Below, one piece after another: positions 546-51,117 of a DNA stretch of 51,117 nt; positions within the stretch are counted from its first letter, which is position 1; every line of letters starts with the position of its first letter. The stretch is from the NCBI GenBank assembly GCA_026984135.1, contig JALSSR010000152.1, positions 1 through 51,117 on the forward strand, written 5' to 3'. Below the pieces are notes generated by a model. That model was not told the origin of the DNA and did not search any database. It saw nothing but the letters and a program-made list of their open reading frames with translations. Position numbers and translations under genes: made by a program. The DNA is from Bacteroidales bacterium (GTDB taxonomy: Bacteria > Bacteroidota > Bacteroidia > Bacteroidales > JAADJA01).

Positions 546-3500
546 ATGAACAAAATTTTATTTACTAAAAAAGCTCAGGTGATTATAATAATGCTTGGGT
601 TTTTATCAACGGCACTCTTTGCCGGAAACATTAATGTGAGCGATAATACAACGGGATTTAAAGTTGTAAATAACAGCTACAATTCGCTCTCGGTAAGAAG
701 CACTTTATCCGACATTAACTTCATTGAAGTTAAAACTAAAGAGGGAAGATTTACTATGTTAACTGTTCCCGATTATTCTTACACAATGAATGAAGGCGAA
801 CCCCGCCTTCCCGTACTTAAGAAGTTGATAGAAGTTCCTGTGGGAGCTACCATTAACGTTTCTTACACTTCAAACTATGTTGTAGTTCGTAAGCTTGCCG
901 ATTACAACATTGATAATTACATTTTGCCTACACAGCCTTCGCTGTCGAAAAGCGATAATCCGGAGGATGTTGTTTTTATTTATGATAAGCAGGCATATAA
1001 AACTGATCAGCTTTACGGGAATGATCTCGTAAAAGTTGTTGACCTTGGAATTATGAGAGGTGTGAGAATGGCAAGAGTGGAGATTGCACCGATTATGTAT
1101 AATCCCGTTCAGGGTAAATTGGTCGTTAACATTGACGTAAATGTGGATATCACTTTTGACGGGGCAAATGTTGCGGCTACAATCCAAAACAAAGAAAAGT
1201 ATTTCTCACCCTATTTCGAGGGTATCTATCAGGAGCTTGTCAATTACAAGCCATTGGACAGCAAAGAATTGATAATGGATGCTCCTCCGACATATATCAT
1301 TGTTTCCGATCCGATGTTTGAGGCTGCTCTGCAACCTTTTGTCCAATGGAAAACAAAAAAAGGATTTAATGTTGTTGAGGCTTATACCGATGATCCTAAT
1401 GTCGGAAACACAAACACTTCAATAAAATCATATCTTGAAGATTTTTACAACAATCCGCCTGCCGGATATACTCCGCAGAGTTTTGTGCTTCTTGTTGGTG
1501 ATGTAGCACAAATACCGCCTTTTAACGGCACTGCAGGAGGTCATGTGACCGATTTGTATTTTTGCGAATATACAGGCGACATTTACCCCGAATGTTATTA
1601 CGGAAGATTCTCAGCCAATAATCTTGCGGAATTACAACCGCAGATTGACAAAACACTTGAATATGAGCAGTATCTTTTCCCGGATCCTTCATTTTTGGAT
1701 GAGGTAGTAATGGTTGCCGGAGCCGATGCATCACACCAGTTAACCTGGGGTAACGGCCAGATTAACTATGGAACAGAAAATTATTTCAATGAAGCTCATG
1801 GAATTCTTTCTCATACCTACTTGCAGCCTGAGCCGGCAGGAGGTAATTACTCACAGGAAATACATCAAAATGTCAGTGACGGTGTGGCTTATGCAAATTA
1901 CACTGCACATTGCAGCCCTAACGGCTGGGCTGACCCGAGTTTCGGTATCGGAGATATTGCAGGCTTGTCAAATGCTCATAAGTATTGCTTAATGGTAGGA
2001 AACTGCTGTTCTTCGGTTGAGTTCCAAACAACCTGTTTTGGTGAGGAGATGCTACGTGCACAGGATAAAGGAGCTCTCGGATATATCGGCGGTTCAAACA
2101 GTACATACTGGGATGAGGACTATTGGTGGGGAGTAGGCTTTGAAGCCATTGAAGCCAACCCCGTTTACGAACCTGACCATCTCGGAGCTTATGACCGTAC
2201 TTTCCACGATCACGGTGAACCTTTGGACGAGTGGTATGTTACACAAGGCCAAATGGTTTCGGCAGGTGACCTTGCCGTCACGCAAGCCGGATCAAATATG
2301 GAAACATATTATTGGGAAATTTATCACCTTATGGGAGACCCCTCATTGATGGTTTATTTCTCTCAACCTCCGGATGCAACAGCTAATTATCAGGGTTTGA
2401 TGCCCCTTGGTTCTGCTACCTTTACTGTTAATACCGATCCTTATGCTCTTGTAGCTATTTCAAAAGACGGAGTTCTTCACGGTGCTGCCGTTGCAGACGA
2501 AACAGGTGTTGCAGAGGTTAATATGTTCGACCCCATTGCCGTTCCCGGAATGGCAGATGTTGTTATAACAGGCCAAAATCTGAAACCTTATATCGGTGAT
2601 GTTGTTGTTCAATCTCCCTCAACCGCTTATATTCTTTTTGATGAAATGAATATTGACGATAGCAACGGAAATAATAACGGGCTTGTTGATTTTTCGGAAT
2701 ATATCCTGCTTGATGTTACTTTGCAGAATCTCGGAACGGTAACCGGAACAAACCTGGTTGCTACATTATCAACTGATGATGAGTATGTTACCGTTGATAC
2801 GGATACTCATAACTGGCCTGATATCTCAGCAAATGCTTCCGTTGAGCAAACAGGAGCATTTGCTTTTACTGTTAATGATATAGTTCCCAATCAGCACATT
2901 GTAATGTTTAACCTTGATGTAACTGACGGTACGGATACATGGTCTTCGACTTTCAGTGTTATCCTTAACTCTCCTGTATTGATTGCGGGAAGTTTTTATA
3001 TTGACGACTCAAACGGAAATAACAACGGCAGGCTTGATCCGGGAGAAAATGCCGATATCATTGTAAGCAATACCAATGACGGTGGTTGTGATGCGTTGAA
3101 CTCCATTGCTTCGGCTATCACAACAAGCGGAATATTGACACTGAACAATACAACCTACGACCTTGAAACCATTGCAAGCGGTGAGACTAAACAGGCCGTT
3201 TTCAACGTAACCGTTGATGCTTCCGCACAGATTGGCGATGTTGTTAATATCAATTATACTCTGGAATCTTCACCATATAGTACAAATGAAGCTATTTCCC
3301 TGACAATAGGATTGCTTGTTGAGGATTTTGAAACCGGCGATTTTACGGCATACGACTGGTCGTTTGCCGGTGATGCAGACTGGGTTATTGATAATGCTGT
3401 TTATTATGAGGGCGATTACAGTGCAAAATCGGGAAATATTGTTGATGATCAGACCTCATCACTTGTGATTACTCTTGAAGTATCAACTGACGATCAGATA

Positions 3501-4469
3501 TCATTTTACAGAAAAGTTTCTTCGGAATCAAACTATGACTTTTTGAGATTTTATATTGACGGTGTTCAACAAGCCGAGTGGAGTGGTGAGGTTGACTGGG
3601 AAGAAGTATCGTATCCGGTTACTGCCGGTGATCATACTTTCACCTGGTCGTATGAGAAAGATTACTCCGTATCAAGTGGTGATGACTGCGCTTGGGTTGA
3701 TTTTATCGTATTTCCGTCATTTGGCGGTGCTGCTCCTCTTGCTGTAGCTGCTTCGGCTAATCCTGCCGAAATATGTGCAGGTGAAAGTTCACAGCTAAAT
3801 GCATTTGCAACCGGCGGCTCGGGTAATTATACTTATCAGTGGTCACCTGCAACCGGTTTGAACGATCCGAATATACAAAATCCCGTTGCCACTCCGGACG
3901 AAACAACCGTTTATTCGGTTATTGTTAATGACGGAAGCGACGAAGTTACCGGAGAAGTTACACTTACGGTTAACCCTGTTCCCGAAACACCGACAGTTAC
4001 ACAGCAGGAAAGTATGCTTGTTTCAAGTGCCGAAGAGGGAAATCAATGGTATGACTCCAACGGAGCTATCGAAGGTGCCACGGGACAAACTTACACTCCA
4101 ATGGCAACGGACGATTACTACGTGATAGTTACCAATGAGTTCGGATGCGAGTCGGAGCAATCAAATGTTTATCATTTTATTTATACCGGTGTAATTGAAA
4201 TATCAAGTAATGATAATGTCCTTATTTATCCTAATCCGTTCCTTGATCAGTTTACCGTTGACTACTCTCTGAAAACAGTATCTAAAGTTACAATTACGGT
4301 TTATGATACTTACGGAAGACAAGTTGCAACGGTTAAAAGTGATAATGATGAGACGGCAGGAAATCACAGGGTGATTTTCAATACGGAAAAATTTAATCCA
4401 GGTATCTATTTTTGCAGAATTGAAACCAGCGACTATACGGTTATTAAACGTATAGTACAGTCTAAATAA
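546..4469 (+). CDS. C25 family (gingipain-like) cysteine peptidase with propeptide, Ig-like repeats and T9SS C-terminal domain
   Basis: Signal peptide; C25 motifs (LLVGD, YGRFSA, YTAHC, GNCC, YHLMGDP); DDSNGNNNG repeats; CTD IYPNPF...GIYFCRI...IKRIVQSK. Confidence 0.9.
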
Positions 4470-4477
4470 TTAAATAT

Positions 4478-4504
4478 GGAATCCCCCGAAAACCGGGGGA
4501 TTCC
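4478..4504 (+). terminator. Hairpin between the two C25 genes (terminator or RNA-stability element)
   Basis: GGAATCCCCC-gaaaacc-GGGGGATTCC, a perfect 10-bp stem; the U-tract is weak. Confidence 0.65.
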
Positions 4505-4537
4505 TTATATTGAAATCCAATTTAAAATATTAGAAAA

Positions 4538-7500
4538 ATGAAAAAGTTAATTGTAGCAATTGCATTGCTAATAACTACCGGTTTGTTTGCCGGAAACGGT
4601 TATGAAGCAACATTCGAGCAACCTGAAAATGGTATTTATCAGGTGAATTTTACAATAGGTAATTATGATTTGACTGAGGTTGCATTTGATGGTGTAACCT
4701 ATTCAAAGATAATTTTTGACGGAAGTGTGCATACAAATATGAAAGGTTTTGCAGAACTTCCTTTCGTCAGTGCATCGGTTATGTTATCACCGGATAAAAA
4801 TGTTTCATTGAAGGTGATTTCATCGGATTATGTGGATATTGACCTTGAGAACCCTATGCTTCCTTCAAGAGGTGTTATTTACAGGGATCAGGACCCTTCG
4901 GCAATACCTTATGAAATAAGTCCGTCTTCATTACGGGATAATTGGTATCCCCAAAATCTGGCAAGGAACACAGCACCGTTTATCATTAAAGATATAAGAG
5001 GTACTTCCGTTTATGTTTATCCTTTCAGATATAATGCCGTACAAAATAAGTTACGTATATATAAATCCGTAACGGTTCAACTGATTGAAAATGAAACTCA
5101 ACCGGTTAATCCTCTTGCCAAAAAACCTTCAAAAATATTACGTGAGATGGACGGGATTTATTCTTCACTCTTTATCAATTATTCCGAAAATAAGGATGAC
5201 CTTACAATAGGACAATTCGGAGATATTTTGGTAATATGCACCGACAGGGATGAGAATGCCATTCAGCCTTATATTCAGTGGAAAAGAGAAAAAGGTTATA
5301 ATGTTTCGTTGGAAGTTGTGGCAACGGGAACAAATGTAAAAACACTTGTTCAAAATGCTTATGATGCAAATAACGATTTGCTTTATGTTCAATTGGTGGG
5401 CGATTGGGCGGATATAAAATGTGATGTGTTAAACGGCTCTTCTCCAATGGACCCCCAACTTGGCTGTGTTGTCGGAAATGATGAAGTTGCGGATATTACA
5501 GTTGGAAGGATATCCTCAAATTCACCTTCGGATGTTACGGTTCAGATTGATAAAATCATTAACTATGAAAAAAATCCCGATATCGGAGCAAGCTGGTATA
5601 GCGCTGCTATAGGAATTGGGTCGGATCAGGGGCCCGGTGACGACGGTGAACTTGACAAGGAGCATATTCAGGTGATATGGGATGATAAGCTTGATCCTTT
5701 TACCTACGAAACATATTCCCCGATTTATGATCCTTCCGCATCCGCGGCAATGGTGTCCACTGCCGTTAATGACGGTGCCGGTATAGTCAACTATTGCGGA
5801 CATGGTTCTCCGACTTCCTGGGGAACAACGGGTTTCAGCAACAATGACGTTTCTGCACTTACAAATGGAGATAAATTACCCATAATCTTTTCCGTTGCTT
5901 GCAATAACGGTAATTTTCAGGATCCGGGCGACTGTTTCGGTGAAGCCTGGTTAAAGAAAGAAAACGGAGGAGCCGTTATGTTTCTCGGAGCTACTATTAG
6001 CCAGCCATGGGACCCACCTATGCGGGGCGAAGACTATTTTGACGATATTCTTACGGGTGGATACGATTACTCCCAGCATCCGGATCAAAACGGAATTTCT
6101 ACGGACGAGGGTAGAACGACTATAGGTGCAATTGTGTTTAACGGTTTTGTATTAATGACTACGGAATCCAACGGGGCAAGCGATTGGGAAACGGCCAAGA
6201 CCTGGACTATTTTCGGAGATGCCTCTATGCAACCGCGTACGGATATACCCGGTGCAATTACTCTTTCAAATGAAACGGTAATGGCCGGTATTCCTTATAC
6301 TACAACGGTAAGTGGTCCCGATGGACCTGTTGAAGGGGCAATGGTTTGTATTTCAAACGGAACGGATTACTTTTCAGGTGTTACGGATGCAAGCGGAAGT
6401 GTCTCAATAAATCATACTTTGGTTCCGGGTGCGGCAAAGAGGGTAGTAACGGGCTTTAATCTCGAAATCGTTTATGAAGATATTACGGTTGCATCTTCAA
6501 ATACACCCTGGATTGTTGCAGGCGATTGTGTGATTGACGATTCCAACGGGAACAACAACGGACAGGCCGATTACGGTGAATCCGTATTGCTTAATGTTAC
6601 AGCTGAAAATGTCGGAACGGTTGCCGCTTCGGGAATTAATGCTGTAATTACTTCTACCGATCCTTTTATCACAATTACGGATGATTCATTCTCGTACGGT
6701 GATATTGCCGGTGGCCAGACCGTTAGCGGCGACGGTGCGTTTGCCGTTACAATTGCGGGCGATGCTCCCGATAATTATAATGCTGTTATTGATATTGAAT
6801 TTACCGACGGAAATAAAGATTCATGGACATCTTCATTTACAATTGATTTACATGCTCCTGTTATGGAAATGGGAAATTATACAATTGATGATGCTTCCGG
6901 CAACGGAAACGGAAATATTGACCCGGGCGAAACCGTTGAAATTACAATACCCGTTTTAAACTCCGGTTCTTCGGATGCTTATTCCGTTGTCGGTGAGCTT
7001 GTATGTAATGATGCTTATATTACAATTGCAAACGCTTCCCAAAATTACGGAGATATAAATGCTGCCGGACAAGCACAGGCAGTCTTTACCGTAACGGCTG
7101 AAGCAGTTACTCCTGTGGGACATCAGGTTACTTTTGATTTTGAAATTTCCGCCGATTTGATCACTTCCGTACAGGAATCTTTTGATTTGGTGATTGGCCA
7201 GATACCTGTAGTTGTAATTGACCTTGACGGTAATACCAATTCGGGGCCTGCTATGGTTGATGCTATGGCAAATAATGGTGTTGCAGCCGAATATGTTGCA
7301 TCCTTTCCCGATGATCTGAATTTGTATTCTTCGGTATTTCTGTGTCTTGGTGTTTATCCTGATAATCATACTCTTACGGATAGTGAAGGGCAGTCTCTGG
7401 CAGACTATCTAAATGCAGGCGGTAACCTTTATATGGAAGGTGGAGATACCTGGTTTTACGATCCGCAAACAGTTGTCCATCCTATGTTCAGCATTGATCC

Positions 7501-8605
7501 GCAAGCAGACGGTTCGGGTGACTTATCAACAATAGCCGGGAAAACGGGAACGTTTACCGAAGGAATGTCCTTCGGTTATGGAGGTGATAACAACTGGATT
7601 GACCAGATTGGTGCGTCAAATTCCGCCTTTGTTATTCTTGAAAATCAGGCTCCGGTTTACGGTACCGGGGTTGCTTACGATCAGGGAACATATAAAACAA
7701 TAGGTGCTTCTCATGAGTTTGGAGGGCTTGATGACGGTGCATCACCTTCAACTAAGGATGAATTGATGAATGAATACCTTGTATTCTTCGGGATTGGCGG
7801 TTCCGAGTTACAGGCATACTTCTCTGCCGACGACCCGGTTGTTTGTGAAGGAGGAACAGTTACATTCAGTGATTTGTCAACCGGAGGTGCCACTTCCTGG
7901 AGTTGGGAATTCCCGGGTGGTGACCCCGCTACTTCAACGGAGCAAAATCCTGTTGTCACTTATAACACTGTTGGAGTTTATGATGTTACATTAACAATTT
8001 CCGACGGTACTAATACAAACTCATACACAAAAGACAATTACATAAATGTTGTAGTGGCACCTGAGGCTCCTGCAGCTCCACAAGGTGATGCCGACGTTTG
8101 TACAAACTTTGTTATGACATCGGAATATACAACAACCGGAGTTGCGGGTGCTGATTCGTATGTGTGGATGATTACACCTGCCGATGCCGGAACTATATCG
8201 GGAACGGAAACAACCGGAACAGTTGAATGGACAGATAGTTGGGAAGGAACTGCAACAATAACGGTTAAAGGTGTTAACGCTTGCGGCGAAGGAGTTTCCT
8301 CCGAAGGTTTTGACGTTGTTTGTTCAATTTGCACGGGTATTGACGAAATCGGACTTAATGAGGTTTCGGTTTATCCCAATCCGGGCAACGGTCTTTTTAC
8401 TGTCGAGATAAGCGGTTTAAATAGTAAAGACCTTTCTATAAAAGTTCTAAACACTCTGGGAGCGATAGTCTATGATCAGGTAGGAATTGAAACATCTGCC
8501 AACTATAAAACGACAATTGACCTAAGTGAATTGAACAAAGGAGTATATTTCCTTGTTATTAATGGAAACGAGGGTAAAGTTATAAAAAGAATAATTATCC
8601 AATAG
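4538..8605 (+). CDS. C25 family cysteine peptidase with propeptide, PKD domain and T9SS CTD
   Basis: YCGHG (His422) and SVAC (Cys455) give the 33-residue dyad spacing of RgpB; TIFGDASM; PKD motif SWSWEFPGGDP; CTD VYPNPG...GVYFLVI...KRIIIQ. Confidence 0.9.
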   Translation: MKKLIVAIALLITTGLFAGNGYEATFEQPENGIYQVNFTIGNYDLTEVAFDGVTYSKIIFDGSVHTNMKGFAELPFVSASVMLSPDKNVSLKVISSDYVDIDLENPMLPSRGVIYRDQDPSAIPYEISPSSLRDNWYPQNLARNTAPFIIKDIRGTSVYVYPFRYNAVQNKLRIYKSVTVQLIENETQPVNPLAKKPSKILREMDGIYSSLFINYSENKDDLTIGQFGDILVICTDRDENAIQPYIQWKREKGYNVSLEVVATGTNVKTLVQNAYDANNDLLYVQLVGDWADIKCDVLNGSSPMDPQLGCVVGNDEVADITVGRISSNSPSDVTVQIDKIINYEKNPDIGASWYSAAIGIGSDQGPGDDGELDKEHIQVIWDDKLDPFTYETYSPIYDPSASAAMVSTAVNDGAGIVNYCGHGSPTSWGTTGFSNNDVSALTNGDKLPIIFSVACNNGNFQDPGDCFGEAWLKKENGGAVMFLGATISQPWDPPMRGEDYFDDILTGGYDYSQHPDQNGISTDEGRTTIGAIVFNGFVLMTTESNGASDWETAKTWTIFGDASMQPRTDIPGAITLSNETVMAGIPYTTTVSGPDGPVEGAMVCISNGTDYFSGVTDASGSVSINHTLVPGAAKRVVTGFNLEIVYEDITVASSNTPWIVAGDCVIDDSNGNNNGQADYGESVLLNVTAENVGTVAASGINAVITSTDPFITITDDSFSYGDIAGGQTVSGDGAFAVTIAGDAPDNYNAVIDIEFTDGNKDSWTSSFTIDLHAPVMEMGNYTIDDASGNGNGNIDPGETVEITIPVLNSGSSDAYSVVGELVCNDAYITIANASQNYGDINAAGQAQAVFTVTAEAVTPVGHQVTFDFEISADLITSVQESFDLVIGQIPVVVIDLDGNTNSGPAMVDAMANNGVAAEYVASFPDDLNLYSSVFLCLGVYPDNHTLTDSEGQSLADYLNAGGNLYMEGGDTWFYDPQTVVHPMFSIDPQADGSGDLSTIAGKTGTFTEGMSFGYGGDNNWIDQIGASNSAFVILENQAPVYGTGVAYDQGTYKTIGASHEFGGLDDGASPSTKDELMNEYLVFFGIGGSELQAYFSADDPVVCEGGTVTFSDLSTGGATSWSWEFPGGDPATSTEQNPVVTYNTVGVYDVTLTISDGTNTNSYTKDNYINVVVAPEAPAAPQGDADVCTNFVMTSEYTTTGVAGADSYVWMITPADAGTISGTETTGTVEWTDSWEGTATITVKGVNACGEGVSSEGFDVVCSICTGIDEIGLNEVSVYPNPGNGLFTVEISGLNSKDLSIKVLNTLGAIVYDQVGIETSANYKTTIDLSELNKGVYFLVINGNEGKVIKRIIIQ

Positions 8606-46126: not shown

Positions 46127-46164
46127 ATGTTTAAAACAAAATGTTTAAAACAAAATGTTTAAAA
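46116..46164. repeat. 14-bp tandem repeat, 3.5 copies
   Basis: (TTTAAAACAAAATG)x3 plus TTTAAAA. It overlaps the ATPase -33 box and the DUF3810 stop codon. Confidence 0.9.
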
Positions 46165-47265
46165 TTGCAAAACACCTTTTTTACTGTAATCATTCAACAG
46201 GAGTGTAACCATAAGTCCGTAACTTTTAATACCCGCTTTTTGGTTGTTGGCTTTTAGATATTTGTCATAAACCTTGTCGGAATATTTTTCAAAAGGGTTC
46301 TTAAATTTTAACCAATATTTGCGGTTTTCGTCAAGGTCCGACTTAACGCCGGCAGATATTTTTTTACGTAGTTCGTCAAACGATACGGGATCGCTTTTTC
46401 TTAATGCGTTTAATGAATAGCGCATTGCCATAAGATAGCCCGAATATCTGAAAACGGGATTGTTGCTTCTCCGGCAGGCGGTAAAAGAAACATAATTGGC
46501 CTCATCTTCGGGTGCAATACCTGCCTGATGTGCCATTTCGTGACAAACGGTGGCAGGCAGAAGGAATAGGGGAGGATCGGAGTTTACGTTTGCCTCACCC
46601 GTAAACGGATTGTAAATGCCTGTAACTCCGAGATATGAAAATAAACCGGTAAATAAAATACTTTTTACGGACGGAAGTGCATAATAAAGATTCCTGTTTC
46701 CGATTTTCAAATCAATGTATGAGTTATATGCATCTGATATGATGTCGCTTTTTTTAATTTTTTGTAATTCTCCCGAATCCCCGATAGCTTTTCTGTTTTC
46801 GTTGGTTTCGGTTATCAGAATTTCACATAGACTTTTTAATTGTTCGGTTGAAAATTTCTTCCCCGCAACATTTACCAACGGTTCTCTGTGGTAATTAAAA
46901 CCCCATAGGACCATAAACAGGAAGTATATAATTGAACCGGTTGCAATAAGAGTTGTCAACGAACCGGTTATAAATGAAAAGGCGGTTTGTTTTTTCTTTG
47001 ATATTCGATAAATGCCTCCGAATAAATAATACGGAATGAAAAGTATTAAGAAATAAACCGCTATTTCGCCGAAGGAAAAGGGCAACCATTTTGTCACTGC
47101 CCGTAATAAAAACGATAAGAATCCGTAAAGCCCTTCGGAATACCAAACTTCAACAAAATGAGGGTAAGAATTGATAACGGAAAACAGTAACCATTGTACG
47201 GGTAAAAGAATAATCCACAGTGTTTTCCATGACCATACTATAAAAGGCTTTTTAATTGCTTTCAT
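46159..47265 (-). CDS. DUF3810 family membrane protein (putative zincin)
   Basis: VEVWYSEGLY, WGFNYHR, GIYNPFTGEANVN, CHEMAHQAG (HExxH), EDEANY. Confidence 0.85.
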   Translation of the reverse strand: MKAIKKPFIVWSWKTLWIILLPVQWLLFSVINSYPHFVEVWYSEGLYGFLSFLLRAVTKWLPFSFGEIAVYFLILFIPYYLFGGIYRISKKKQTAFSFITGSLTTLIATGSIIYFLFMVLWGFNYHREPLVNVAGKKFSTEQLKSLCEILITETNENRKAIGDSGELQKIKKSDIISDAYNSYIDLKIGNRNLYYALPSVKSILFTGLFSYLGVTGIYNPFTGEANVNSDPPLFLLPATVCHEMAHQAGIAPEDEANYVSFTACRRSNNPVFRYSGYLMAMRYSLNALRKSDPVSFDELRKKISAGVKSDLDENRKYWLKFKNPFEKYSDKVYDKYLKANNQKAGIKSYGLMVTLLLNDYSKKGVLQF

Positions 47266-47403: not shown

Positions 47404-47434
47404 TTTGAAAAGTAGCAAAAAAATTGTATATTTG
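47404..47434 (+). promoter_or_regulatory. sigma-A promoter for the FISUMP gene
   Basis: TTTG at 47404-47407, 19-nt spacer, TATATTTG at 47427-47434. It overlaps the ORF-track start at 47424, which favours the GTG start at 47553. Confidence 0.7.
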
Positions 47435-47552
47435 CCTGTCCGAAACAGAAATATGCACTTGCATTGCGAAGATGTATTTTATGAAATTTAAAAATCCGCT
47501 TGACGATATATGTAATTATTATAGATTTATAAACTCATTAAAATCATATCCT

Positions 47553-48899
47553 GTGAAAACAAAAACTTTACTTTCGATTTTGGCACTTGCAACAGTAATA
47601 AGTGCTTTTGCACAAAAACCCACAATGGAACTGACCTTTACGGCGGAAAACAGCGGACAATACGTCCCGATGGACAGCATTCTCATTGAAAACCTCACAC
47701 AGGGCGGGGACACAACGCTTTATCCACCCGACACAACACTTTCGTTGGAATATAACGTGGGTATCAATGAAACTGACTTATCAAAAAACACATTTTCCGT
47801 TTCACAAAATTACCCCAATCCGTTTAATGAAAAAACCACGGTTAATTTGGTTTTGCCGGGGAAAGATAATATTAAAATCACCTGCCGGAATATGCTTGGC
47901 ATCGAGCTGGCACATTATGAAAAGGTTTTGAACCGGGGCAACCATTCCTTTATTTTTTATTGCGGTGCCGGAAGCCAATACCTGCTTACCGTAACAGGAA
48001 AACAAACAAGCAAAACCGTTAAAATGCTGAATTCAGGCAGTAATATAGCCAAAAGTGGAAAATGCAAAATAGTTTATAACGGGAATGTAACCGGTTTTAA
48101 ATCCAGCGAAGCCCTGAACGGTTTTGTGTTTAACCTTGGCGATGAATTGAAATATACTGCTTATACCGATGTGGAAGAAACAGAAAAAATTGATTCTCCC
48201 ACTGGCAGCCAAACTTACACATTTCAATTTGACGGATGGGATCCCTGTCCTGGAATGTCCATTATTACCGACATTGATGGCAATACCTACAATACGGTTC
48301 AAATAGGCAACCAGTGCTGGATGAAGGAAAACCCGAAAACCACAACCTACCGAAACGGCACAGCAATACCTAATATAACGGATGCTAATGCTTGGGAAAG
48401 TCTTACAACCGGAGCCTATGTATGGTATGGTAATGGTATTAGCTGGAAAGGCCCGTATGGTGCTTTGTACAACTGGTATGCAGCGGTTGATGCCAACGGT
48501 CTTTGCCCAACGGAATGGCACGTACCGACAGATGATGAATGGACAGCATTGACCGATTTCATTGGCGGAACAGGCTCGCCCCACAGCAACGAGCTAAAAT
48601 CGTGTAGGCAGGTCAATTCGCCTTTGGGTGGAGGTTGCAATACAACGGAACATCCAAGATGGAATAACCCGCAAAATGGAGTTTTCGGTACTGACGATTA
48701 TGGATTTTCAGGTCTTCCGGGCGGCTACCGTAACTTCAGTGGCTATTTCGACAGCGTTGGCTACTCCGGTGGCTGGTGGTCTTCTACGGAGTCCTCATCA
48801 GCCAGTGCCGGCCGCTTCCTGAGTTACAACGACGGCTACGTGTTCGTGAACTACTACAGTAAGCAGGATGGTTTTAGCGTCCGTTGTCTCAGGGATTAG
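47553..48899 (+). CDS. FISUMP (Fibrobacter succinogenes major paralogous) domain protein, probable DGR target
   Basis: Signal peptide MKTKTLLSILALATVISAFAQ from the in-frame GTG; TDIDGNTYNTVQIGNQCWMKEN, YGALYNWYA, CPTEWHVPTDDEW, GLPGGYR, WWSST, GFSVRCLRD. Confidence 0.88.
   Translation: MKTKTLLSILALATVISAFAQKPTMELTFTAENSGQYVPMDSILIENLTQGGDTTLYPPDTTLSLEYNVGINETDLSKNTFSVSQNYPNPFNEKTTVNLVLPGKDNIKITCRNMLGIELAHYEKVLNRGNHSFIFYCGAGSQYLLTVTGKQTSKTVKMLNSGSNIAKSGKCKIVYNGNVTGFKSSEALNGFVFNLGDELKYTAYTDVEETEKIDSPTGSQTYTFQFDGWDPCPGMSIITDIDGNTYNTVQIGNQCWMKENPKTTTYRNGTAIPNITDANAWESLTTGAYVWYGNGISWKGPYGALYNWYAAVDANGLCPTEWHVPTDDEWTALTDFIGGTGSPHSNELKSCRQVNSPLGGGCNTTEHPRWNNPQNGVFGTDDYGFSGLPGGYRNFSGYFDSVGYSGGWWSSTESSSASAGRFLSYNDGYVFVNYYSKQDGFSVRCLRD
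48720..48896 (+). other. Candidate DGR variable region at the 3' end of the FISUMP gene
   Basis: Of 59 codons, 31 end in C, 16 in T, 10 in G and 2 in A. Variable-looking positions fit A-to-N derivatives of AAC/AAT codons. Confidence 0.7.
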
Positions 48900-48938
48900 G
48901 ACGCTTTGACAATTTGTCTATTTGACTATTTTTTTATT

Positions 48939-48952
48939 GCCCCGTAAGGGGT
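48939..48952 (+). promoter_or_regulatory. GC-rich hairpin downstream of the variable region (DGR-type cis stem-loop candidate)
   Basis: GCCCC-GTAA-GGGGT, 40 nt after the stop, preceded by three 8-mers (TTTGACAA, TTTGTCTA, TTTGACTA). Confidence 0.5.
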
Positions 48953-49049
48953 CGAATTTTTGCGAAAGGTGAGCGCAGAATCAAACTTGTTTGAATTCTG
49001 CCGAGCCAAACAAAAATCACTGAAAGTAAATTTTTCTTGTATGGGATTA

Positions 49050-49250
49050 CATTATGATTTCCCTGATAAACAAAGGCTAACCAAACAAAGTAGACAAAGG
49101 TTTATGAAAAAGTTCGGTAAATACGATAAAATGTTAAAAAACGGTTTATGGTCACAAGAGGAATATGCCGGGCATATTATTCCGCTTATTGCTTTCACAA
49201 ACCATGCAAACACAAAACAATTAAGGATGAAACATATTGAAAAAACGGAA
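49050..49250 (+). pseudogene. Probable C-terminal remnant of a DGR-type reverse transcriptase
   Basis: FPDKQRLTKQSRQRFMKKF...GLWSQEEYAGHIIPLIAFTNHANTKQLR resembles, from memory, the thumb/C-terminus of Bacteroidota DGR RTs. No YxDD core and no proper start are present. Confidence 0.6.
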
Positions 49251-49725
49251 ACCGCCAATAGGCCACACTCCCGTCATTGCGAGGGATTTAGAGGGGGCAA
49301 TGGGCGCAGGCATCCCGTGGCAATATGTTTGATATGAAAAGGCGGCCAAAATTGCCAACCGTCAGACTGCGCAACAACCTAAAATTTCATCAGAGATAAT
49401 TATCGGCTTGTAAAATCTAAAAAATATTGAATCCGAAATTTGTTGTACATTTGGGACTCTTAAACACCTGGATATGAATATACCGAAAGAAAACAGGTTT
49501 GCGAAAAGCAAACTTGATTTCTTTCGAGTCCCATCTTAGACGTGGATGCTCGACAAAGTCGGCGTATTAACTGGTTCTAAGCAGCTTTGCGTTGCAAACC
49601 TGATAAGATCCAGTATAACAGGAAGGAATTTGCAAATTTTAGTGGGGTTATTGCGTGAACTCCCGTTACCTGCAAGGCAAAACGCAGTCCAAACAAAATC
49701 GAAATTAATTGAAGAAATGGTTGCG

Positions 49726-49756
49726 TTGTCCCAATTTTTATGTATTTTTGGGACAA
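49726..49756 (+). promoter_or_regulatory. Inverted-repeat operator overlapping the TA promoter
   Basis: TTGTCCCAA-N13-TTGGGACAA overlapping the -7 box TATTTTTG at 49743-49750. Confidence 0.7.
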
Positions 49757-49767
49757 ATTAATAAGAA

Positions 49768-50385
49768 ATGACTGTTTCAAGTAAAATAGAGAATATAATT
49801 ATTAAATCGAAAAAGGGGAAACTCTTATTTGTTTCTGATTTTTCTCAATATGGTAATTATGATACAGTTAGGAAAGCACTTCAACGATTAACAGATAAAG
49901 GAATAATTTTAAGAATTTCAAAGGGAATTTATTATTATCCGAAAACAGATGAACTTCTTGGCATTTTATATCCAACAGCAGCAGAAATTGGAAAAGCAAT
50001 CGCAAAACGAGATAAAGCAAGAATAATTCCGACAGGAGCATATGCTCAACATTTACTTGGATTATCTACACAAATTCCAATAAATATTGTTTACCTGACT
50101 GATGGCTCAGCACGAAAAGTAAAAATAGGCAATCAAACAATTATTTTCAAAAAAACAAGTCCGAAAAATTTGAGTTTTAAAAGTAAATTAAGCAGTTTAA
50201 TAATCCAAGCCTTAAAATCTAAAAAAGAAAATAACATTACCCAAATTGAAAAACTAAGGTTGACTGAAATTATTAGGCAATCAAATGAAAAGGAAAAAAT
50301 AAAAAAGGACATTCAAAATGCACCCGTTTGGATACAAAAAATCGTATTAGAAATTTTATCAGCTATTAAAGATGAATTGGCTTAA
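49768..50385 (+). CDS. DUF6088 family protein (AbiEi-like type IV antitoxin)
   Basis: VRKALQRLTDKGIILRISKGIYYYPK, AHLLGLSTQIP-type segment (AQHLLGLSTQIP), VYLTDGSARKVKIG; overlaps the AbiEii gene. Confidence 0.85.
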   Translation: MTVSSKIENIIIKSKKGKLLFVSDFSQYGNYDTVRKALQRLTDKGIILRISKGIYYYPKTDELLGILYPTAAEIGKAIAKRDKARIIPTGAYAQHLLGLSTQIPINIVYLTDGSARKVKIGNQTIIFKKTSPKNLSFKSKLSSLIIQALKSKKENNITQIEKLRLTEIIRQSNEKEKIKKDIQNAPVWIQKIVLEILSAIKDELA

Positions 50386-51117
50386 TTTACCGAAAAATAA
50401 ACAGCAAGAATTGTTTAAACAATTAAGTGTTAAAACAGGCATTCAACCGCAAGCTATTGAGAAGGATGCTTGGGTAACACTTGTATTGAGAGTTATATTC
50501 AGCTCTCAAATTTCTGAATATTTGGTATTTAAAGGCGGAACATCATTAAGTAAAGCATATAAATTAATACAAAGATTTTCGGAAGATATTGACCTTGCCA
50601 TAAGTAGAGAATATCTTGGTTTTCAAGGAGAACTAACGAAAGGACAAATTCGTAAACTTCGCAGAAAATCGCACGATTTTGTATCAAATGAAATGCTCAA
50701 TACATTAATCAATGAATTTAAAAAGCAAGATATTGACAGGCAATTATTTAATGTTGAAGTTAAGAACACTAAGATTTCAGACCAAGACCCTGAAACTATT
50801 GAAATAATTTACCAGTCCGTTTTTGAAGAATTACCGTATATAGAGCAAAAAGTATTAGTAGAAATTGGATCACGTTCATTATTAGAACCATCTGAGAACA
50901 AGGAAATAAAATCGATTATTGATGAGAATTATGCAAGTGCCCAATTTTCGGAAATAGCCTTTACAGTAAAGACAATTCGACCGGAAAAGACTTTTTTGGA
51001 AAAATTAATTTTATTGCACGAAGAATTTTCAAAACCGATTGAAAAAATTCGTTATCACAGAATGTCTAGACATTTATATGACATTGGAGAAATCATTACA
51101 ACTGACTTTGGCGTCAA
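50372..51117 (+). CDS. AbiEii/AbiGii family nucleotidyltransferase toxin, 3'-truncated by the window edge (absent from the ORF track)
   Basis: ATG at 50372: MNWLNLPKNK...AIEKDAWVTLVL...LVFKGGTSLSKAYKLIQRFSEDIDL...EKTFLEKLILLHEEF...RMSRHLYD. The frame is open to the window end. Confidence 0.92.
   Translation, partial: MNWLNLPKNKQQELFKQLSVKTGIQPQAIEKDAWVTLVLRVIFSSQISEYLVFKGGTSLSKAYKLIQRFSEDIDLAISREYLGFQGELTKGQIRKLRRKSHDFVSNEMLNTLINEFKKQDIDRQLFNVEVKNTKISDQDPETIEIIYQSVFEELPYIEQKVLVEIGSRSLLEPSENKEIKSIIDENYASAQFSEIAFTVKTIRPEKTFLEKLILLHEEFSKPIEKIRYHRMSRHLYDIGEIITTDFGV

Follow-up and report, generated by a model that had tools for sequence, protein, structure and literature searches.

A DGR wreck beside a FISUMP gene in a Bacteroidales bacterium, with an avd start joined to a reverse transcriptase thumb

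The region downstream of a FISUMP surface protein gene in a Bacteroidales bacterium is the wreck of a DGR, not a working gene. Directly past the terminator-like hairpin of the FISUMP gene, the C-terminal stub of a DGR reverse transcriptase (RT) is joined in frame to seven avd codons and their leader. The avd start, the layouts of related loci and an RT end without a template repeat (TR) together point to at least two breakpoints and probably to a composite of two cassettes, not to one deletion. The window analysed here is the whole of contig C152 (51,117 bp) from a MAG of 4.17 Mb in 307 contigs that is 92% complete. Its relevant features are as follows.

46159-47265: DUF3810-like gene, on the upstream flank of the locus
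47424..48899, + strand: FISUMP (Fib_succ_major) surface protein gene, longest ORF (PF09603 E 5.3e-38, TIGR02145 E 2.1e-30)
48708..48899, + strand: 3' end of the FISUMP gene equivalent to a variable region (VR), template gone; alignable to the VR/TR pair (190 nt) of L107, an intact locus
48900..48931, + strand: post-VR motif GACGCTTTGACAATTTGTCTATTTGACTATTT, 89-94% shared with the post-VR sequence of L107 and of several other FISUMP paralogs
48939..48961, + strand: hairpin GCCCC-GTAA-GGGGT followed by CGAATTTTT, called as terminator-like
48946..49040, + strand: leader conserved ahead of avd and predicted to form a stem-loop (83% G006:C47, 77% G021:C371)
49041..49061, + strand: avd stub, ATG plus six codons (MGLHYDF), aligning with the avd starts in G006 and G021
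49041..49337, + strand: 98-aa in-frame chimera that runs from the avd start through the RT thumb into 28 unrelated read-through codons
49059..49254, + strand: remnant of a DGR RT C-terminus (thumb), 64 codons, HRDC-associated clade, by homology to full-length RTs
49274..49339, + strand: hairpin element 'X' of 66 nt (CATTGCGAGGGAT...ATCCCGTGGCAAT; CATTGCGAGG...CCGT.GCAAT), 76% identical to G042:C279 (L063) 8331-8396
49768-51115: toxin-antitoxin pair of DUF6088 (AbiEi-like, PF19570 E 3e-66) and an AbiEii nucleotidyltransferase (PF08843 E 2e-30), directly downstream and running off the contig end

The preliminary description of this DNA had read positions 48960-49260 as the C-terminus of a DGR-type RT. 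The peptide it quoted sits in frame 3 of the + strand within an ORF of 125 aa (48960..49337). When this ORF was searched with phmmer against 1.84 billion representatives, 85 proteins matched at E<=1e-3 (top non-self match 7.9e-13). The full-length matches (334-379 aa) were all aligned via their last ~70 residues and all contain Pfam RVT_1; these relatives also bear the DGR-typical IGNLTSQ motif (PIGNLTSQYFAN). At the level of sequence, the resemblance of the stub to RT C-termini is thus confirmed as far above chance. The blastp check that the description had proposed for the stub translation likewise gave alignments to RTs. Because the blastp alignments to RTs open almost uniformly at F7/P8 of MGLHYDF-PDKQRL, we confine the RT-derived part to 49059-49254 (FPDKQRL...HIIPLIAFTNHAN..., 64 residues), so that the extent first given contains the remnant and also sequence of other origin.

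The thumb was present in 20 other genomes when 401 same-order genomes were searched, with 62% identity to the closest, G282:C150, and 53% to the next, G282:C279. Neither Pfam nor NCBIfam matched the 125-aa ORF; the thumb lies outside RVT_1. NCBIfam holds no DGR-RT model, and the stub's relatives match only its group II, retron and Drt models, below cut-off. A profile of 28 thumb sequences found no match in the PDB at E<=10. The ORF has no RVT_1 and none of the marks of an RT catalytic core (RVT_1 motifs, YxDD, [I/L]GxxxSQ), and full-length RT queries matched this genome by tblastn only over residues 267-324; a genome-wide search also gave no RVT_1. The stub is an RT remnant, non-functional as a DGR RT, and the 125-aa 'hypothetical protein' is best annotated as an RT pseudogene fragment.

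The RTs related to the stub come from a clade in which the RT directly follows an HRDC gene (seen by tblastn in ~20 same-order loci; PF00570 E 3.5e-12 and 5e-14). Self-comparison of these loci gave the layout VR, ~200 nt, HRDC, RT, 0-100 nt and TR (127-141 nt). TR/VR mismatches fall on TR adenines in 18/18 cases in L048, 17/18 in L051 and 19/21 in L054, and the identity of the thumb to the DGR RTs beside such adenine-specific pairs is 40-62%. These neighbours show that the stub's relatives are true DGR RTs and, by homology, that the stub itself derives from one, as the preliminary description had proposed. The TRs of the clade read GSNRVxRGGSWNNNAxNCRVANRNNNxPxNRNNNxGFRL, the FGE-sulfatase/CLec type, and are trailed by a conserved post-TR element. 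No bAvd was found on any contig with an HRDC-RT cassette (17 genomes). In its thumb, the window resembles the RTs of the VR-HRDC-RT-TR cassettes of HRDC-type DGRs (architecture C, Treponema-type; Wu et al., 2018, PMC5758913), but only the end of the RT is kept; HRDC gene, RT core, TR, post-TR element and a target of FGE-sulfatase type are missing.

The sequence in front of the thumb is related to avd loci. Window positions 48946-49060 are 83% identical in DNA (117 nt) to the target-avd junction of G006:C47, and the match covers the intergenic leader and the seven codons that open avd. The DGR of G006:C47 is intact, with an Lcl_C-type target carrying a VR, an Avd of 113 aa (PF22296 E 2e-22), an Asn-rich TR and an RT of 398 aa. 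The search of 28 other same-genus genomes that gave this match also gave one at 77% of 48912-49073 to G021:C371. The avd starts compare as MGLHYDF in the window, MALYYEL in G006 and MSLHYDL in G021. We assign GGATTACATTATGATTTC / GGATTACATTATGATTTCCCT to the N-terminus of avd by this flanking DNA homology, not by the codons themselves, and the ATG at 49041 accordingly reads as the inherited avd start codon. The ORF had earlier been called devoid of a credible start, and GGATTACATTATGATTTCCCT had been taken for an eroded G-Y-I-I-F-P segment of the RT; the possible starts are in fact TTG at 48960 and the avd ATG at 49041, and the DNA identity to an intact target-avd junction replaces the second reading. 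Homology to the G006 avd is limited to the leader, the start codon and six further codons, which does not amount to the four-helix bundle of Avd (bAvd, PF22296). G021 has the same leader behind a FISUMP paralog, and its avd ends after about 14 codons; this cut is a second, independent truncation. RNAalifold, run on three sequences only, predicted 28 pairs in the leader, 4 of them with compensatory changes (window 48958-49020; L020 2040-2105, - strand; L013 1573-1640). The predicted stem-loop may be a regulatory or DGR-RNA element.

A second intact DGR from the same genus, L107 (G042:C397), shows which machinery accompanies a FISUMP target. Its order is FISUMP(VR), two small ORFs, Avd, TR and RT, and its 190-nt TR/VR pair has 21/24 mismatches at TR adenines. 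This locus shows that the FISUMP family is diversified by an Avd-type DGR in this genus, which agrees with the earlier view that the gene beside the stub belongs to a DGR-diversified family. The L107 RT shares 61% identity with that of G006, and its clade ends in a different C-terminus (...SYLGIMQHYKTYK...; the ~400-aa '...SYLGIMKHYK...' type). In tblastn searches of the window contig neither RT_G006 nor RT_G042 gave a match, and an HRDC-clade RT matched with E 1.5e-15. The two small ORFs between the L107 target and avd (2745-3366; MKISDIIKREENNKDIVLHKEGVFWRAYEYSAF...) have no Pfam match and may represent an MSL-like accessory gene. The window thus shares with Avd-type DGRs that have FISUMP/DUF1566 targets (CLec2, category 'd', Legionella-type; intact in G042:C397 and G006:C47) a FISUMP target, a VR-like end, the post-VR motif, a hairpin with T-run and the avd leader and start, all in the same order. 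It differs from them in that its avd stops after codon 7 and in that the TR and the cognate RT clade are missing. In the scheme of Wu et al. (2018, PMC5758913), Fib_succ_major targets make up category 'd'.

PF09603 spans residues 292-490/491 of the window FISUMP, which places a Fib_succ_major domain with a putative VR at the extreme C-terminus, as in DGR targets of the CLec2 type. The true start of the gene is likely GTG at 47554, opening a signal peptide (VKTKTLLSILALATVISAFAQ) as in its paralogs, which begin MKTKTLL. Against the L107 TR, the window VR mismatches at 50% of A sites vs 34% of non-A sites, a weak enrichment, between sequences too diverged for an adenine footprint to be read. Apart from two paralogous FISUMP genes, no copy of 48680-48905, which spans the VR, was found in the window or the genome. 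The post-VR motif common to the window and L107 is CTTTGACAATTTG.C.ATTTGAC.ATTT, with a hairpin and T-run in the corresponding position. At least 11 FISUMP paralogs are present in the genome (including contigs C73, C79, C90, C98, C144, C153, C172, C295, C306 and C69), and among these the motif, as GCTTTGAC(A/T)ATT, is kept only in the window's copy and in C79. In L108 (G012:C7) a group II intron (4174-6190) separates a FISUMP stop codon from the post-VR motif, filling exactly the space between them, and the motif picks up at 6191; Rfam places D1-D4 at 4371-4489 and domain V/VI at 6115-6190, and an intron RT lies inside. Similar beginnings ('TTGTGCACTG...') come after the FISUMP stops in G004:C15 and on the genome's own contig C144.

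The window hairpin consists of a 5-pair stem (four G-C pairs and a closing G-T wobble) with the loop GTAA (T at position 2), lies 39 nt past the FISUMP stop codon and is followed by a T-run. The DGR target hairpin of Guo et al. (2011) has a GC-rich stem of 7-10 bp and a 4-nt GRNA loop, 4-34 bp after the VR. On stem length, loop and distance we rejected the window hairpin as an element of that description; it looks more like an intrinsic terminator, and may also serve as a DGR target hairpin. Its stem is preserved by compensatory changes across five loci, the sequence changing to ACCGC/GCGGT in G006, ACCCC/GGGGT in G021, ATGGGG/CCCCAT in G042:C279 and ACCGCC/GGCGGT in L107.

What a DGR needs to operate is missing from the genome. 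RVT_1 and bAvd gave no match anywhere in the 92%-complete genome, and tblastn returned the thumb stub only when the queries were Avd, RTs from the two clades and TRs of the two types. An HRDC query gave one weak match well away from the stub (C152:14905-15090, 29% identity, E 0.001), which is presumed to be helicase-related. The window thus offers no TR cognate to the VR, and of the accessory genes (Avd/HRDC) only the 7-codon avd stub. The loss of the RT core and of any TR, asserted in the preliminary description, therefore holds for the window and the rest of the genome alike. Since RT core (fingers and palm), Avd, DGR-type HRDC and TR are all lacking, the variable tip of the FISUMP protein is frozen.

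Two breaks delimit the RT stub. The 5' junction, between avd and RT, falls at about 49056-49062, with 49056-49074 as its outer bounds. DNA and protein homology to the HRDC-clade loci ends at ~49254, and in the alignment to these loci nothing TR-like follows the RT stub. The stub is thus an island of 195 nt, broken off at both ends, the second time at ~49255, where a TR would be expected. Element X follows shortly downstream. Its counterpart in G042:C279 is part of a locus in which a decayed FISUMP paralog is followed by the post-VR motif and hairpin, by element X and, beside it, by the final ~45 nt of an FGE-type TR with its post-TR element. Element X may mark the spot of TR loss, and the debris in G042:C279 implies that HRDC-type DGR remains beside FISUMP genes are recurrent in the genus. 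Several other candidates were discarded. Positions 49262-49290 resemble the VR 3' end, and 49370-49395 a TR end, only weakly and with no alignment in support; an apparent second RT remnant on contig C91 matched a repeat in the non-RT tail of the L107 ORF; and the FGE-sulfatase-domain genes of the genome (C282, C218, C60) have no DGR-type VR end. Rfam reported only RAGATH-7, sub-threshold, on 48800-49900. An intact ancestor of this exact locus was not found, a single-protein scan of genome contigs yielded no close relative, and a degenerate HIIPLIAFT pattern had one relevant match in metagenome contigs, L114, which is also a thumb stub.

Further downstream, window positions 49479-49619 are a hairpin-rich repeat of ~140 nt (MFE -51.5 kcal/mol over 161 nt) with >25 full or partial copies in the same genome (C274 92%, C107 90%, C295 90%) and others in same-genus genomes. 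Its flanks (49421-49472 and 49620-49670) are ~5 nt apart in C274, so the repeat behaves like a MITE insertion.

We propose that two different cassettes, FISUMP-avd-TR-RT and target-HRDC-RT-TR, once stood in tandem, the first of which would have supplied the avd stub and the second the RT stub. One deletion would have taken out what lay between avd codon 7 and roughly residue 265 of the RT, and a second event would have removed the TR and post-TR element after the RT stop. We give this history somewhat better than even chances. A single ancestral cassette with both helpers, arranged FISUMP(VR)-avd-HRDC-RT-TR or FISUMP-avd-TR-HRDC-RT, would need an avd-to-thumb deletion and a further loss if its TR lay downstream. 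The adjacent, in-frame position of the two stubs would suit it, as would the many architectural variants described by Wu et al. (2018, PMC5758913), who found avd in about half of 14 HRDC DGRs. Among ~20 relatives of the RT clade, however, not one has avd on the same contig; their TRs are all of the FGE-sulfatase type, unlike the FISUMP VR, as is the TR remnant beside the FISUMP paralog in G042:C279; and the FISUMP-targeting DGR of the genus has a different RT clade. We therefore regard a single cassette as possible but doubtful.

The order target-hairpin-TR-RT, from which the preliminary description had derived the locus by one deletion of the TR and RT core, with the upstream peptide as an eroded 'GYIIFP' of the RT, fits neither system: the clade of the stub is built VR-HRDC-RT-TR, and the DGR that serves FISUMP in this genus has the order FISUMP-avd-TR-RT and an RT from another clade. 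A real RT C-terminus does lie about 160 nt past the VR, and xLxYx-FP can be read in MGLHYDFP given one gap, but the 83% identity of 48946-49060 to an avd leader and start, the lack of any relative in the RT clade with a TR upstream of the RT, and the second break at ~49255 make this account very unlikely. That the FISUMP VR can no longer be rewritten, its machinery missing, stands as first suggested; that a single deletion did it does not, given the avd/RT junction and the break beyond the stub. An assembly chimera, in which the contig would join unrelated fragments and the remnant be an artefact, could be entertained for a MAG of 307 contigs, and assemblers struggle with DGR repeats. The 195-nt RT island would nevertheless require the assembler to misjoin twice inside 200 nt, both junctions lie outside sequence repeated elsewhere in the genome, the avd leader is single copy, and similar stubs occur in the independent assemblies L013, L058, L063 and L114, so that we consider an artefact extremely improbable. 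The tandem-cassette collapse remains our preferred history.

The chimeric ORF is most likely a non-functional by-product of this collapse. Pfam assigned it to no family, and lacking polymerase core, helper and template, its product is unable to support retrohoming. It might instead be a retained small protein, expressed from the avd leader, that for example binds RNA as a thumb peptide or inhibits incoming DGRs. All 64 thumb codons are open, the avd ATG and a conserved leader are present, and many short proteins among the database representatives derive from RTs by in-frame deletion. A called protein is necessarily in frame, however, so that the selection is biased; the tail of 28 residues is unrelated sequence reached by read-through; and no ortholog of the avd::thumb ORF was found in the 28 same-genus genomes. 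We think a function of this kind hardly credible.

Decayed copies are seen elsewhere. L114 (Ga0190305_1000045; 1-420) has a thumb stub of ~40 codons ahead of an FGE-type TR and post-TR element that are intact, and in L058 (G362:C37, ~7070-7400) the RT is in pieces and the TR internally deleted. Many short cluster representatives among proteins P0002-P0085 are in-frame deletion derivatives of the stub's RT clade: the RT N-terminus (MKR.G.L...) is fused straight to the thumb in P0009, P0011, P0034, P0036, P0046, P0057 and P0068, an HRDC N-terminus is fused to it in P0008, P0013, P0024 and P0053, and ~15 begin at the Met of YMDD. Such short representatives may come from clustering bias or assembly artefacts. 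It is a long shot that in-frame fusions of an accessory gene or RT N-terminus to the thumb are a recurrent, possibly selected way of switching off DGRs, with functional thumb mini-proteins that would, for example, bind DGR RNA and block incoming elements; if this were true, the avd::thumb ORF of the window and the many short N-terminus::thumb and HRDC::thumb representatives would be instances of the switch-off.

Degraded and orphaned DGR components have been described in cyanobacteria, and so has the idea that fixation of a good variant is followed by removal of the machinery (Vallota-Eastman et al., 2020, PMC7517822). Like those orphans, the window carries a variable-protein paralog without diversification machinery; unlike them, it keeps scraps of that machinery (the avd stub and the RT thumb stub), has mappable breakpoints and belongs to a Bacteroidota MAG. 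The locus is an unremarkable leftover of a mutagenesis system that was already known, and reveals no new mechanism; the decay is of a known kind, with unusually clear breakpoints, and it may be of interest for the study of DGR gain and loss. Avd-type and HRDC-type cassettes have both left debris beside FISUMP genes in one genus. The locus records the death of a DGR with its breakpoints mapped and a hypervariable lectin tip left in one state.
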